Source of the DNA: Sulfuritalea sp.
Lineage (GTDB): Bacteria; Pseudomonadota; Gammaproteobacteria; Burkholderiales; Rhodocyclaceae
Direction: 5' to 3'
DNA: 64,000 nucleotides
Assembly: GCA_030651305.1 (NCBI GenBank)
Contig: JAUSCI010000073.1
Span: 5,155 to 69,154, forward strand
The position numbers and the translations under genes were made by a program. This document shows positions 25,595 to 47,405 of the stretch, piece by piece. The notes under the pieces are model-generated. The model saw nothing but the letters and a program-made list of their open reading frames with translations, had not been told where the DNA came from and searched no databases. Each line of letters starts with the position of its first letter. Positions within the stretch are counted from its first letter, which is position 1.

Positions 25595-25675
25595 GACGCA
25601 AAGACGCAAAGGCGCAAAGGAATTCAAGAACAGAATTCGCCGTTGGTCTACTTTGCGTCTTTGCGCCTTTGCGTC
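25595..25675. repeat. Intergenic inverted repeat with arms of three tandem 8-bp (A/G)CGCAAAG units (element A)
   Basis: Left arm GACGCAAAG-ACGCAAAG-GCGCAAAG (25595-25619), 31-bp spacer, right arm CTTTGCGT-CTTTGCGC-CTTTGCGTC (25651-25675). Confidence 0.92.
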
Positions 25676-27678: not shown

Positions 27679-27704
27679 AGAACCATGAAATTCAGAATCG
27701 ATTC

Positions 27705-27819
27705 AGCCACAGAGATCACAGAGGACACAGAGAAAAACCCTCGTGTCATCGACACGACTCTATTGTCACAGCTGAAATGGAATTGCTTTATCTCTGTGAG
27801 CTCTGTGTCCTCTGTGGCT
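27705..27819. repeat. Intergenic inverted repeat with arms of three tandem 9-bp NN-CACAGAG units (element B)
   Basis: CACAGAG at 27708/27717/27726 and CTCTGTG at 27792/27801/27810; outer AGC/GCT; the 57-bp spacer contains the hairpin TCGTGTC-ATC-GACACGA. Confidence 0.93.
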
Positions 27820-27833
27820 AAAAGGTTTTCGGC

Positions 27834-44360: not shown

Positions 44361-45812
44361 ATGAACGCCAAGCGCGCCAAGACTCCGAAGAACTCTGCCA
44401 CCAAACTGTTCGTGCTCGACACCAATGTGCTGATGCATGATCCCTTGAGTCTCTTCCGTTTCGAAGAGCACGACATCTACGTGCCGATGATGACGCTGGA
44501 GGAACTCGACGCCAACAAGAAAGGCATGTCGGAAGTCGCGCGCAATGCCCGCCAGACCAGCCGCCTGCTCGATGAGATCGTCACCGGCGCCGAACATAAC
44601 ATGGCCAAGGGCATAGATCTCACCGGCCCTTCGCGCGCACTGGCAACCGGCCGCCTGTTCCTGCAGACCGAGGCCATCAACGGCATCCTGCCGAGTTCGC
44701 TGCCGACCGCCAAGGCCGACAACCAGATCATCGGCGTGGTCATGTATCTGGGCCAGAAGTTCCCCAAGCGGCCGGTGATCCTGGTCACCAAAGACATCAA
44801 CATGCGCATCAAGGCCCGCGCGCTGGGCCTCGAAGCACAGGACTATTTCAACGACAAGGTGCTGGAGGATACCGATCTCCTCTATACCGGCACCCTCGAA
44901 CTTCCGCCGGATTTCTGGGATAGCCACGGCAAGGGCCTGGAGTCGTGGAAGAAGGAGAGCCGCACCTATTACCGTATCAAAGGCCCGCTGTGCCCGGACC
45001 TGCTGGTCAACGAGTTTGTCTGGCAGGAGGGTCCACAACCACTTCAGGCCTGGGTGAAAGTCGGCTCTGGCAGGACGGCGGAACTCGAAACCATCATCGA
45101 CTACAGCCACGCCAAGAACGCCGTGTGGGGTATCACCGCACGCAACCGCGAACAGAACTTCGCCCTCAACTTGCTGATGAATCCCGACATCGACTTCGTC
45201 ACGCTGCTCGGTCAGGCCGGCACCGGCAAGACGCTGCTGACGCTTGCCGCCGCCCTGACGCAGACACTGGAGACCAAGCTCTTCGCTGAAATCATCATCA
45301 CCCGCGTCACCGTTCCCGTCGGTGAGGACATCGGTTTCCTGCCCGGCACGGAGGAGGAGAAAATGACGCCGTGGATGGGTGCGCTGGAAGACAATCTGGA
45401 AGTGCTCAACAAGCCCGCCGAAACCCCGACCGGCGGCCCCGCTGCCGGCGCTGGCAGCTACGGCGGCGACTGGGGCCGCGCCGCGACGATGGACCTGATC
45501 CGCAACCGGATCAAGATCAAGTCGCTCAACTTCATGCGCGGCCGCACCTTCATGAACAAGTTCCTCATCATCGACGAGGCGCAGAACCTGACGCCGAAAC
45601 AGATGAAAACCCTGATCACCCGCGCCGGTCCGGGCACCAAGGTGGTTTGCCTCGGCAACATTGCCCAGATCGACACGCCCTACCTCACCGAAGGCAGTTC
45701 AGGCCTGACCTACGTGGTGGATCGCTTCAAGGGTTGGTCGCACTCTGGCCACGTCACGCTGCAGCGCGGCGAGCGGTCAAGGCTCGCCGATCACGCGGCG
45801 GAGGTTCTGTAG
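44361..45812 (+). CDS. PIN-PhoH family protein (PhoH2/YlaK-like)
   Basis: N-terminal PIN domain (VLDTNVLMHD...DNQI...TKDINMR) plus PhoH ATPase (GQAGTGKT, MRGRT, IIDEAQN). Confidence 0.92.
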   Translation: MNAKRAKTPKNSATKLFVLDTNVLMHDPLSLFRFEEHDIYVPMMTLEELDANKKGMSEVARNARQTSRLLDEIVTGAEHNMAKGIDLTGPSRALATGRLFLQTEAINGILPSSLPTAKADNQIIGVVMYLGQKFPKRPVILVTKDINMRIKARALGLEAQDYFNDKVLEDTDLLYTGTLELPPDFWDSHGKGLESWKKESRTYYRIKGPLCPDLLVNEFVWQEGPQPLQAWVKVGSGRTAELETIIDYSHAKNAVWGITARNREQNFALNLLMNPDIDFVTLLGQAGTGKTLLTLAAALTQTLETKLFAEIIITRVTVPVGEDIGFLPGTEEEKMTPWMGALEDNLEVLNKPAETPTGGPAAGAGSYGGDWGRAATMDLIRNRIKIKSLNFMRGRTFMNKFLIIDEAQNLTPKQMKTLITRAGPGTKVVCLGNIAQIDTPYLTEGSSGLTYVVDRFKGWSHSGHVTLQRGERSRLADHAAEVL

Positions 45813-45864
45813 CGACCACACCAGCCCGGTCGCCCGACGAACCAATCCTGGAATTCAAGACCAA

Positions 45865-45959
45865 TTAGCCACAGAGCACACAGAGAGCACAGAGAAAAGC
45901 ATGTGGTATTGCTCTGTGTCCTCTGTGATCTCTGTGTCCTCTGTGTCCTCTGTGGCTAA
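45865..45959. repeat. Intergenic inverted repeat of 9-bp NN-CACAGAG units, 3 left and 5 right (element C)
   Basis: CACAGAG at 45870/45879/45888; CTCTGTG at 45912/45921/45930/45939/45948; outer TTAGC/GCTAA; 17-bp spacer. Confidence 0.93.
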
Positions 45960-46001
45960 CGGTTTTGCATTTCGCACGTTGACCTGCACTGAAATTTTGC
46001 T

Positions 46002-47405
46002 TCAGTTTCTGTAGGACGAGCCTGAAGCGAAATTCTCAAACTTGGCGTATTCCGCGATGAAGGTCAGCGGCACCATGCCGACCGGGCCATTGCGGTGCTT
46101 GCCGATGTTCGCCTCGGCCTTGCCCTTGTCCTGCGTGTCGGGCTTGTAGTACTCCTCCCGATACATCATCACGATGATGTCGGCGTCCTGTTCGATGGCG
46201 CCCGACTCGCGCAGATCGCTCATCAGCGGGCGCTTATCGTTGCGTTCCTCGACCTTGCGCGAGAGCTGTGACAGGGCGACGATCGGCACCTGCAATTCCT
46301 TGGCCAGCGCCTTGATCGAGCGCGATATCTCGGAAATTTCCGTGGCGCGGTTTTCACCATCGCGGTTGGAACTCATCAACTGCAGGTAGTCGATGATGAT
46401 CAGGCCGAGCTTGCCGAACTGCCGGTGCAGACGCCGGGCGCGGGCGCGCAGGTCGGTCGAGTTGATGGCGCCGGTCTCGTCGATATGGATCGGCGCTTCG
46501 TGCAGTTTGCCCAGCGCCACGGTCATGCGATCCCACTCGTCATCGGTCAGGCGACCGGTGCGCAGCTTGCTCTGGTCGATGCGGGCGACCGACGAAAGGA
46601 AACGCGTGGCGATCTGCGGACCGGACATTTCCAGGCTGAAGATCGCCACCGGCAGCCTCAGTTCGACGCCGACATGCTCGGCGATGTTGAGCGCAAATGC
46701 GGTCTTGCCCATGGACGGGCGGCCGGCGACGACAATCATGTCGCCCGGCTGCAGGCCCGAGGTCATGCGATCGAGGTCGACGAAGCCCGTGGCTACGCCG
46801 GTAATGTCGGATTGGCTGTCGCGCGCCAGCAGGGATTCCATGCGCTCGACGACTTCACCCAGCAAGGGCTGAATCGCGACGAATCCATTGTTGCTGCGAT
46901 TGCCTGCTTCGGCGATCTGGAAGATGCGCTGCTCGGCATCGTCGAGCAGCGTCTTGACATCGCGCCCGGCGGGATTCAGCGCATTGCCGGCGATTTCGTC
47001 ACCCACGGTGACCAACTGACGCAGGATGGCGCGCTCGCGCACGATTTCGGCGTAGCGGCGAATGTTTGCCGCCGAGGGCGTGGCGTTGGCGATCTCGCCG
47101 AGATAGCCGAGGCCGCCGGTCTGATCGACTTCGTTCGACTGTTCGATGGATTCATACACCGTCACCACATCGGCGGGCCGACCCTGCTGTATCAGTTTGC
47201 CGATGTGGCGAAAAATCCGGCGGTGGTCATCACGATAGAAATCGGTTTCGCGCACCACATCGCCAATGCGGTCCCAGGCCACGTTGTCGATCAGCAGGCC
47301 GCCGATCAGCGACTGTTCTGCCTCGATGGAATGCGGGGGAAGTTTGAGCGCGGCGACTTGTGAATCGACCGGCTGCGGGGGATTAAAGGCACGGACCTGG
47401 GCCAT
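46002..47405 (-). CDS. dnaB: Replicative DNA helicase
   Basis: LPPHSIEAEQS, AGRPSMGKT (Walker A), IDYLQLM, LSQLSR and DLRESGAIEQDAD. Confidence 0.97.
   Translation of the reverse strand: MAQVRAFNPPQPVDSQVAALKLPPHSIEAEQSLIGGLLIDNVAWDRIGDVVRETDFYRDDHRRIFRHIGKLIQQGRPADVVTVYESIEQSNEVDQTGGLGYLGEIANATPSAANIRRYAEIVRERAILRQLVTVGDEIAGNALNPAGRDVKTLLDDAEQRIFQIAEAGNRSNNGFVAIQPLLGEVVERMESLLARDSQSDITGVATGFVDLDRMTSGLQPGDMIVVAGRPSMGKTAFALNIAEHVGVELRLPVAIFSLEMSGPQIATRFLSSVARIDQSKLRTGRLTDDEWDRMTVALGKLHEAPIHIDETGAINSTDLRARARRLHRQFGKLGLIIIDYLQLMSSNRDGENRATEISEISRSIKALAKELQVPIVALSQLSRKVEERNDKRPLMSDLRESGAIEQDADIIVMMYREEYYKPDTQDKGKAEANIGKHRNGPVGMVPLTFIAEYAKFENFASGSSYRN

Follow-up and report, generated by a model that had tools for sequence, protein, structure and literature searches.

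A gene-less hairpin between phoH and dnaB of Sulfuritalea sp. as a probable satellite of a GxxExxY nuclease cassette

Introduction

Repetitive extragenic palindromes (REPs) carry a conserved GTAG at their 5' end. In REPIN-RAYT systems, short intergenic hairpins are accompanied in each genome by a single gene that has the same repeat on either side and codes for RAYT, a Y1 HUH transposase. We describe here a palindromic repeat, element C, located between phoH-like and dnaB genes in a 64,000-nucleotide stretch of DNA from Sulfuritalea sp. (assembly GCA_030651305.1, contig JAUSCI010000073.1, positions 5,155 to 69,154 of the forward strand; hereafter the window). Its family resembles REPIN-RAYT systems in that short intergenic hairpins coexist with a single gene bracketed by the same repeat, that this gene is inherited vertically at a fixed position (upstream of a serS-like gene in the source genome, G000, and in G005, G009, and G018), and that the repeat type matches the resident gene in each genome. 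It differs from them in that the bracketed gene codes for a 121-residue PD-(D/E)XK nuclease, as predicted, and not for a Y1 HUH transposase, and in that the repeats are phased tandem heptamers devoid of a GTAG head, with the gene inside the hairpin loop and loops that are unique. We propose that element C is probably a satellite, devoid of coding sequence, of a hairpin cassette that in its full form carries a GxxExxY (PDDEXK_3) nuclease gene.

Other described elements share some of these features. Miniature inverted-repeat transposable elements (MITEs) are likewise short, non-coding, multicopy sequences with inverted ends that are present or absent between relatives, whereas the family of element C has no fixed target duplication, no parent transposase element, mutually unrelated interiors, and ends made of tandem arrays. 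Some 23S rRNA intervening sequences have a small open reading frame (ORF) fitted exactly in the loop of a long stem, which would be an RNase III substrate if transcribed. Unlike those, element C lies between protein-coding genes, the ORF of its family is of another kind, and most copies have no gene. Bidirectional intrinsic terminators have in common with element C a stable stem, an A-tract upstream and a U-tract downstream, which make the two strands equivalent, and its location between convergent genes, but the U-tract of element C has only 4 U, its stem exceeds 40 bp, its site is unconserved, and 86% of its family lies between co-oriented genes.

The closest published description is that of the "class 2 predicted global regulator binding sites" of Geobacter metallireducens, with approximately 21 pairs per genome (Aklujkar et al. 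2009, PMC2700814). They consist of three tandem 8- to 9-nt TCTCCGTS[Y] units, form pairs on opposite strands at a variable distance, and are found in some cases between genes of one operon; they were considered to bind IHF/HU-type regulators, with no link to a nuclease or to mobility (PMC2700814). The CACAGAG family of element C has the organization by which these sites were defined, i.e., three tandem 8- to 9-nt units, paired, at a variable distance. The Geobacter unit is the complement of a CACGGAGA-like unit, with a core one base off (CACGGAG versus CACAGAG). From this comparison with the published description, the Geobacter sites are very probably the same kind of element. As for the nuclease, PDDEXK_3 was listed as of "Unknown" function in a 2012 survey of the superfamily (PMC3424549), and our search of the literature on CACAGAG repeats, GxxExxY, and PDDEXK_3 revealed neither a description of the system nor a functional paper later than that survey.

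Results

Structure of element C and of its family

Element C is a 110-nt palindrome devoid of a gene and composed, in order, of AAGACCaaTTAGC, 3 CACAGAG units, a 17-nt loop, 5 CTCTGTG units, and GCTAAcGGTTTT (Table 1). A sequence-only reading of the window had reported this layout (3 versus 5 units, a 17-nt spacer, TTAGC/GCTAA ends, and GGTTTT), and it is exact. That reading had delimited the element as 45841-45966; its right end holds, but its left end was 16 nt too generous. Using a position matrix of 102 half-elements, we found conservation outside the first core to span only positions -14 to -1 (AAAACCwwTTAGC), and element C therefore starts at 45857. The AAGACC variant of its left outer end is found in 5 further copies of the family. 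Tandem Repeats Finder detected a period of 9 in both arms. The pattern CACAGAGNNCACAGAG has 10 matches in the window versus 0.03 expected from shuffles, and all 10 are inside element C and its sister copy, element B, which lies between parE and parC and belongs, as had been noted, to the same core, period, and end family. Folding predictions gave -67.3 kcal/mol for the RNA (z = -8.0) and -30.5 kcal/mol for the DNA (z = -5.3), with the left arm pairing with the outer three units of the right arm and the inner two looped out. A search of element C against Rfam yielded no rRNA or other family above threshold, and only sub-threshold matches to plant-miRNA-like hairpins.

The source genome (3.9 Mb, 61.6% G+C, a draft of 82 contigs) contains 183 matches to the CACAGAG pattern and none to the reversed-pattern control. 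Chaining of the cores yielded 51 paired elements, in all of which the left arm is made of CACAGAG and the right arm of CTCTGTG. The sequence-only reading had proposed counting units per arm over all genomic copies; this count gave 3+3 as the modal form (32 elements), followed by 3+2 (nine), 2+3 (three), and 4+3 (three), with 3+5 (element C), 8+3, 4+2, and 2+2 occurring once each. The unit period is 9 in 199 of 200 steps. The core is exactly CACAGAG in 278 of 302 cases, the spacer bases are R then D, C being almost never found, and the outer end consensus is AAAACCwwTTAGC followed by CACAGAG. The loops are 12 to 75 nt long, with the exception of one of 364 nt.

The gene-bearing copy

The 364-nt loop belongs to the only gene-bearing copy of the source genome (G000:C57:256-695), in which TTAGC-(CACAGAG NN)x3 arms flank a gene for a 121-residue protein on either side. 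This protein matches NCBIfam TIGR04256, "GxxExxY protein" (1e-38), and Pfam PDDEXK_3 (PF13366; 5e-39), with a weak match to Cas4. The ORF fits the loop exactly: its ATG is 6 nt past the upstream arm, and its TGA is inside the first core of the downstream arm. The last codons and the stop codon (TTT TCT CTG TGA) are part of that core, and GxxExxY copies of Hydrogenedentota, Acidobacteriota, and Brocadiaceae (loci L079, L080, and L082) have the same ORF ending. The first 9 nt of the element C loop are identical to the junction between arm and ATG of the gene-bearing copy, a weak match (E = 0.014).

In an alignment of the genus, residues G23, E26, Y29, D65, E75, and K77 are invariant; in an alignment of 50 sequences across many phyla, all of these are invariant except E75, which is conserved at 90% or more. 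D65, E75, and K77 are the putative catalytic residues, and G23, E26, and Y29 are those of the GxxExxY motif. The AlphaFold model (predicted local distance difference test score, 95.6) has a minimal Cas4/RecB-like fold, whose best matches in PDB are Cas4 SSO0001, alkaline exonuclease, and restriction-endonuclease-like proteins, all with template modeling scores below 0.5. A search of PDB by sequence found no solved relative, a search of PHROGs had no match, and PADLOC returned weak Cas4 matches only. The sequence and the model together predict a minimal PD-(D/E)XK nuclease. The sequence-only reading of element C makes no mention of this gene; the link between the two was tested here in the source genome, in the genus, and across phyla.

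Correspondence between gene-less hairpins and the arms of the resident gene

We analyzed a sample of 25 genomes of the genus, of which 12 contain a GxxExxY gene. All the genes of these 12 genomes are bracketed by inverted arrays, whose core and period vary by gene lineage. The gene upstream of the serS-like gene, in the four genomes named above, has CACAGAG arms of period 9 with TTAGC ends. Genes at the trpE-trpG junction have CACAGAGA arms of period 8 (G015, G010, and G003), a mix of CACAGAG and CACGGAG with periods of 9 and 8 (G017 and G007), or CGCAGAGG arms of period 8 (G011). At other loci, CGCAGAGG arms of period 8 were found in G002 and CGCAGAT-type arms in G002 and G008.

The gene-less hairpins match, genome by genome, the arms of the resident gene. 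Thus, period-9 CACAGAG matches number 183 in G000, 274 in G005, 139 in G018, and 24 in G009, with 0 to 1 period-8 matches, and G000, G005, and G018 have 0 to 1 CACGGAG matches. G002, whose gene has CGCAGAG arms, has 30 CGCAGAG matches and no CACAGAG; G011, with the same type of arms, has 39 CGCAGAG matches, and there are none in G000, G005, or G017. The 75 period-9 CACAGAG, 68 period-8 CACAGAG, and 47 CACGGAG matches of G017 mirror the mix in the arms of its gene. The nucleases of G011 and G017 are 74% identical, and their cores are unlike. The pattern is patchy across the genus, with 0 to 274 matches per genome. Among three 99% complete genomes in which no gene was found, hairpins are few in G012 and G019, as in REPIN-RAYT systems, and intermediate in G020.

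The association extends beyond the genus. Inverted tandem arrays of period 8 to 9 surround 31 of 80 GxxExxY loci drawn from many phyla, versus approximately 3 of 80 in a control in which upstream and downstream flanks were re-paired across loci. A Hydrogenedentota copy, whose protein is 70% identical, has the same TTAGC-CACAGAG ends. Within the genus, the cassette at the trpE-trpG junction is that of six species other than the source species (L001, L005, L006, L009, L010, and L016), with three arm types, CACAGAGA, CAC[AG]GAG, and CGCAGAGG; either divergence of the arms in place or repeated hits on this junction could account for this variety.

We also looked for the arms in viral sequences. 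In IMG/VR, the exact arm is present in 65 stretches classed as viral; a single viral-classed contig (IMGVR_UViG_3300031565_000084, 44.5 kb; L160, L193, and L207) has at least 12 exact AGC-(CACAGAG NN)x3 arms. None of the 65 has a GxxExxY homolog, which argues against a phage-borne nuclease.

Constraint on the heptamers

Orthologous copies of G000, G005, and G018 were compared between species, using orientation-confirmed pairs only. The cores are 97.5% identical (389/399), versus 77% (57/74) for the 2-nt spacers. As third codon positions of phoH and dnaB are 77 to 81% identical between G000 and G005, the spacers drift neutrally, and the heptamers are under constraint equal to that on first and second codon positions. 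There is no covariation between the spacers of the two arms: outer spacers match in 67% of cases versus 68% under permutation, and inner spacers match below chance (16% versus 39%). The latter is explained by the many copies that keep one GG arm and one AT arm. This asymmetry, which is that of the gene-bearing copy, was counted by hand from the table of elements in 11 of the 32 3+3 elements versus approximately 3 expected, and suggests descent from a master-like unit. Conservation of the core, with neutral spacers and no covariation, indicates that the constraint bears on the heptamer word and not on pairing. The earlier proposal that each 9-bp unit is a binding site is thereby borne out indirectly, and the units may be regarded as putative sites. 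Spacers and loops had seemed to evolve faster than neutral, which was in part an artifact of copies flipped in place and does not hold for orientation-confirmed spacers.

With its inverted arms, at least two cores, the core, period, and ends of the resident gene, and cores kept while spacers drift, element C is thus a member of this family of phased-heptamer hairpins.

Placement of the elements and the phoH-dnaB spacer

Gene context was determined with a purpose-made, crude gene caller (3272 genes, 88% coding). Of the 51 elements, 44 lie between co-oriented, 6 between convergent, and 1 between divergent genes, versus 74%, 13%, and 13% of background gaps; divergent gaps are depleted in elements (P = 0.007 per gap and 4e-5 per intergenic base). 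Both ends of the element are at most 16 nt from the flanking genes in 36 of the 51 cases, with a median residual spacer of 12 nt, and are mostly within approximately 10 nt of the stop and start codons. In G002, which lacks the CACAGAG type, the sites are empty at all 7 comparable loci, parE-parC included, and the uninterrupted junctions are ATGA or ATGTCTGA overlaps, TGAATG, or TGAtgagcATG, the last being parE-parC, where element B resides in the window. Members of the family tend, with no strict rule, to lie in tight junctions between co-oriented genes, and element C departs from this tendency. The idea that insertion occurs regardless of gene orientation stands insofar as convergent gaps are tolerated, but not in view of the 44 co-oriented copies and the depletion of divergent gaps.

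Element C was confirmed to be flanked by convergent genes, the stop codon of the phoH-like gene (+) being 44 nt before it and that of dnaB (-) 35 nt after it. In this spacer, only G005 shares the element, in the same orientation and with 3+4 units instead of 3+5. In other species, the spacer is occupied by an unrelated repeat, in one or two copies, or by a REP-like repeat with a GTAG head, or has only 4 to 12 nt. Since the relatives have other repeats or almost no spacer, there is no conserved terminator at this site, which appears from these comparisons to be a landing site, or hot spot, for several repeat families. The possibility raised by the sequence-only reading that element C acts only as a conserved bidirectional terminator of the locus was thus not upheld. 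The search for an empty site of element C in the species set found no clean one, as the spacer is too divergent. A metagenome scan with a first pattern had no match; with a second pattern, it yielded one contig, 100% identical to the G005 locus over 3984 nt and therefore not an independent sample.

The repeats that occupy the spacer in other species were also recorded. An unrelated repeat of approximately 75 nt (GAAATTTTAGTTCCGGCC..hairpins..TTAGCCTGCACTGAAATTT) fills it in at least 8 species, G018 included (L019, L021, L026, L035, L038, L041, and L044; L043 for G018). The repeat (..TTAGTTCCGGCC..CCTGCACTGAAATTT) is present in two copies in G009 and in G049, and the window retains only its 3' part, adjoining element C. 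A GTAG-headed REP-like palindrome (GTAGGGCGGACTTCAGTCCGCC...) is found in G047, G053, and G050 (L022, L025, and L039), three times in tandem in G050.

These data bear on an explanation in which the element serves the host, the heptamers binding a nucleoid or global regulator, or the RNA hairpin terminating transcription in both directions, blocking 3' exonucleases, or being a target of RNase III, with the nuclease gene as an incidental lodger. Such a role would agree with the reading of the similar Geobacter architecture as "global regulator binding sites" (PMC2700814), with the stability of the predicted RNA fold, with the strong constraint on the cores, and with the many copies common to three species. 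Moreover, GGUUUU follows the stem of element C in both directions; this tract is short (4 U) and partly paired, and a simple terminator scan did not call the element. Against a host function stand the lack of conservation of the phoH-dnaB spacer, the patchy distribution in the genus, and core types that follow the arms of the resident nuclease gene. In addition, the 44 co-oriented copies are in operon-like junctions, which in G002 are ATGA overlaps or spacers of at most 5 nt and in which a terminator would be harmful. As the regulator explanation accounts neither for the distribution nor for the tracking of the nuclease arms nor for the placement in coupled junctions, it fits less well than the nuclease cassette, and we consider it unlikely.

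Target sites and transposition-based explanations

At several filled sites, the overlap between the two genes is duplicated on both sides of the element (ATGACCC, GTTCATT, TTTCATT, CATGAA, and TGAAsGC), with the stop codon kept in one copy and the start codon in the other. In 5 elements, the two flanks share a 6-mer that contains ATGA, versus 0.9 expected (P = 0.002). The sequence-only reading had raised a target duplication; it is limited to this subset, and across the family the longest word shared by the flanks has a mean length of 4.59 nt, versus 4.57 nt after shuffling.

The 7- to 9-nt flank duplications of a few copies (ATGACCC, GTTCATT, and TTTCATT), the inverted ends, and the presence or absence of copies between species are what would be expected of a classical MITE, i.e., a sequence derived by deletion from an insertion sequence of the DDE type, bounded by terminal inverted repeats and accompanied by a target-site duplication of fixed length. 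However, the absence of a general duplication, the lack of any transposase-sized interior, the sole long-loop copy being the one that carries the nuclease gene, and the unrelatedness of the interiors make this origin very improbable.

Mobilization as REPs or REPINs by a RAYT is hardly tenable. The family is a high-copy extragenic palindrome with patchy, lineage-specific expansion, and the source genome has a Y1_Tnp gene (C68:44371-45102, 57.5 bits), but that gene has no CACAGAG arms nearby, and the arms flank another gene, that of the GxxExxY nuclease. Furthermore, the GTAG head of REPs is missing from the family consensus, the arms differ from REPs in being tandem arrays of heptamers, and the loops are unique to each copy, with interiors that are not alike.

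Unit number, gain, loss, and inversion

Many copies occupy orthologous sites common to G000, G005, and G018. The sequence-only reading had proposed that unit number changes while the core is preserved, and this proved to be the case: unit number differs between orthologs at six sites, namely element C (3+5 versus 3+4) and five others (8+3 versus 3+4, 3+3 versus 3+4, 3+3 versus 5+3, 3+3 versus 2+3, and 3+2 versus 3+3). In G005, the right arm at phoH-dnaB has spacers TC, AT, and AT. The inner three units are the same in both genomes (spacers TC and AT), and the outer spacers differ, TC and TC in G000 versus AT in G005, which implies at least two unit-level events since the two lineages split. 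The loops of these two orthologs are identical at 15 of 17 positions. The 3-versus-5 asymmetry could conceivably be an assembly artifact of a 3+3 element in a draft of 82 contigs, but this is scarcely credible given that the right-arm array of 43 nt is shorter than a read, that the G005 assembly has four units in the same arm, and that unequal arms occur at 19 of the 51 loci and at orthologous loci of two other assemblies.

Copies are also gained, lost, and flipped. Empty sites were found for C29:94119, A10, and A13 in G005, for C39:58323, A8, and A9 in G018, and for A12 in both. In-place inversion of an entire copy was clear in at least three cases: element B (in G005), A11 (in G018), and s5 (in G005). 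For nine pairs of orthologs, the loops have no recognizable relation, and simple copy-and-paste does not explain this pattern of gain, loss, and inversion with unrelated loops.

Several individual sites deserve mention. The most expanded copy, G000:C29:94119-94274, has 8 identical CACAGAGGA units on the left and 3 on the right, and its G018 ortholog is 3+4. Both the arms and the loop of element B are inverted in G005 (L066/L069) relative to G000 and G018, and in-place inversion was also seen at G000:C27:54462 versus G018 and G000:C39:58323 versus G005. The G018 site corresponding to the latter (L049) has no hairpin and contains a direct duplication of approximately 15 nt of the ATGAC.. junction, 17 nt apart, possibly the footprint of a lost element. 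Loops of at least 28 nt have no other match in the source genome and no likeness to the nuclease gene, and thus similarity lends no support to loops as remnants of that gene or as repeats.

Discussion

In the cassette that we propose, a loop is enclosed by two inverted arms, both made of AAAACCwwTTAGC followed by three CACAGAG words every 9 bp. In the source genome, this loop holds the nuclease gene in one copy and 12 to 75 nt of unique sequence in some 50 others, element C among them. Element C would have entered the phoH-dnaB spacer in the common ancestor of the source species and G005, and its right arm would then have gained units by slippage in the 9-bp array, reaching four in G005 and five in G000. 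By analogy with RAYT and REPINs, the nuclease, alone or with host factors, may read the phased heptamers and spread or maintain the copies. At phoH-dnaB, element C would have no required function; as a strong predicted hairpin with GGUUUU after the stem in either direction, it may incidentally stabilize or partly terminate both convergent transcripts.

A number of observations weigh against this reading. G008, G010, and G015 have the gene but few hairpins, and hairpins occur with no detected gene in G006, G021, G024, G020, and G013; most of these genomes are incomplete (G006, G021, and G024 among them), but G020 is 99% complete. Co-occurrence of gene and arms could reflect mere linkage, the gene lodging in hairpin loops. 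The placement of element C, between convergent genes and away from both stop codons, is atypical and shared in context by only 6 of the 51 elements, and, as described above, there is no general target duplication. Lastly, the loops are unique to each copy and unlike the nuclease gene, so that neither simple copy-and-paste of the hairpin nor simple internal deletion of the cassette is demonstrated.

A broader and more tentative hypothesis, to which we give rather less credence than to the satellite origin of element C, is that GxxExxY nucleases and their hairpins form an undescribed pan-bacterial intragenomic replicator. It would depend on a PD-(D/E)XK nuclease and not on a transposase, read a 7-nt word every 8 to 9 bp, and prefer stop/start junctions of operons, duplicating approximately 7 to 9 bp such that both genes survive, and its copies, element C being one, would flip, slip, and decay in place. 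If so, PDDEXK_3/GxxExxY, a family of unknown function, gains a candidate substrate. Widespread intergenic hairpins, including those of Geobacter once annotated as global regulator sites, would be explained as satellites of a selfish or domesticated nuclease cassette, a parallel to REPIN-RAYT with a different chemistry.

The elements separate genes that are translationally coupled, for example parE and parC or those of ABC-transporter subunits. They also endow operon transcripts with very stable predicted RNA hairpins, and sister species differ in the number of units, the orientation, and the presence of the copies, all of which is relevant to operon annotation and strain typing. Element C provides a clean case of a change in unit number at an orthologous site and shows that the family tolerates a convergent gap.

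Coordinates and other repeats

Table 1. Features of the window around element C, with its sister copy (positions are those of the window)
Feature	Position	Strand	Evidence
Element C, whole: gene-less palindromic hairpin	45857..45966		Sequence; ends from flank matrix
Left outer end, AAGACC-AA-TTAGC (family consensus AAAACCwwTTAGC); TTAGC at 45865-45869	45857..45869	+	Flank matrix
Left arm, 3 CACAGAG cores starting at 45870, 45879, and 45888; period 9; spacers CA and AG	45870..45894	+	Sequence, pattern scan, Tandem Repeats Finder
Loop AAAAGCATGTGGTATTG, 17 nt	45895..45911		Sequence
Right arm, 5 CTCTGTG cores starting at 45912, 45921, 45930, 45939, and 45948; period 9; spacers TC, AT, TC, and TC	45912..45954	+	Sequence, Tandem Repeats Finder, fold
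Right outer end, GCTAA-C-GGTTTT; GCTAA at 45955-45959, C-GGTTTT at 45960-45966	45955..45966	+	Sequence, flank matrix
Element B, sister copy, 3+3 units, 59-nt loop, between parE and parC	27695..27829		Pattern scan, comparison
PIN + PhoH-like ATPase gene	44361..45812	+	Pfam PF13638 2e-34, PF02562 1e-46
Remnant like the 3' part of the second, unrelated intergenic repeat (..CCTGCACTGAAATTT)	45967..46001		Spacer comparison
dnaB replicative helicase gene	46002..47405	-	Pfam PF03796 1e-108, PF00772 1e-34

The window also contains element A (25595-25675), a CGCAAAG hairpin of period 8 that is the sole copy of its type in the source genome. In the more distant genome G027, one GxxExxY gene (L013) is surrounded by a CGCAAAG/CGCAGAG-like core, and element A may have been left behind by a different lineage of the cassette.

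A second Y1_Tnp (IS200/RAYT-like) fragment with an in-frame TGA, G000:C9:2499-2693, is located just upstream of the window and has no CACAGAG arms. Another REP-like family (TTACCTGCCCGCGAAGCGGAATCCCAGGTACGCA) has approximately 25 copies in G000, and a 37- to 40-nt member is nested in a CACAGAG arm (G000:C27:54542-54578). Three separate arms (one in G000 and two in G005, L008 and L058) have TTACCTGCCCGCGAAGCGGAATCCCAGGTACGCA nested in this way, always at an equivalent position between the outermost and the second core; among them is the downstream arm of the gene-bearing copy of G005.

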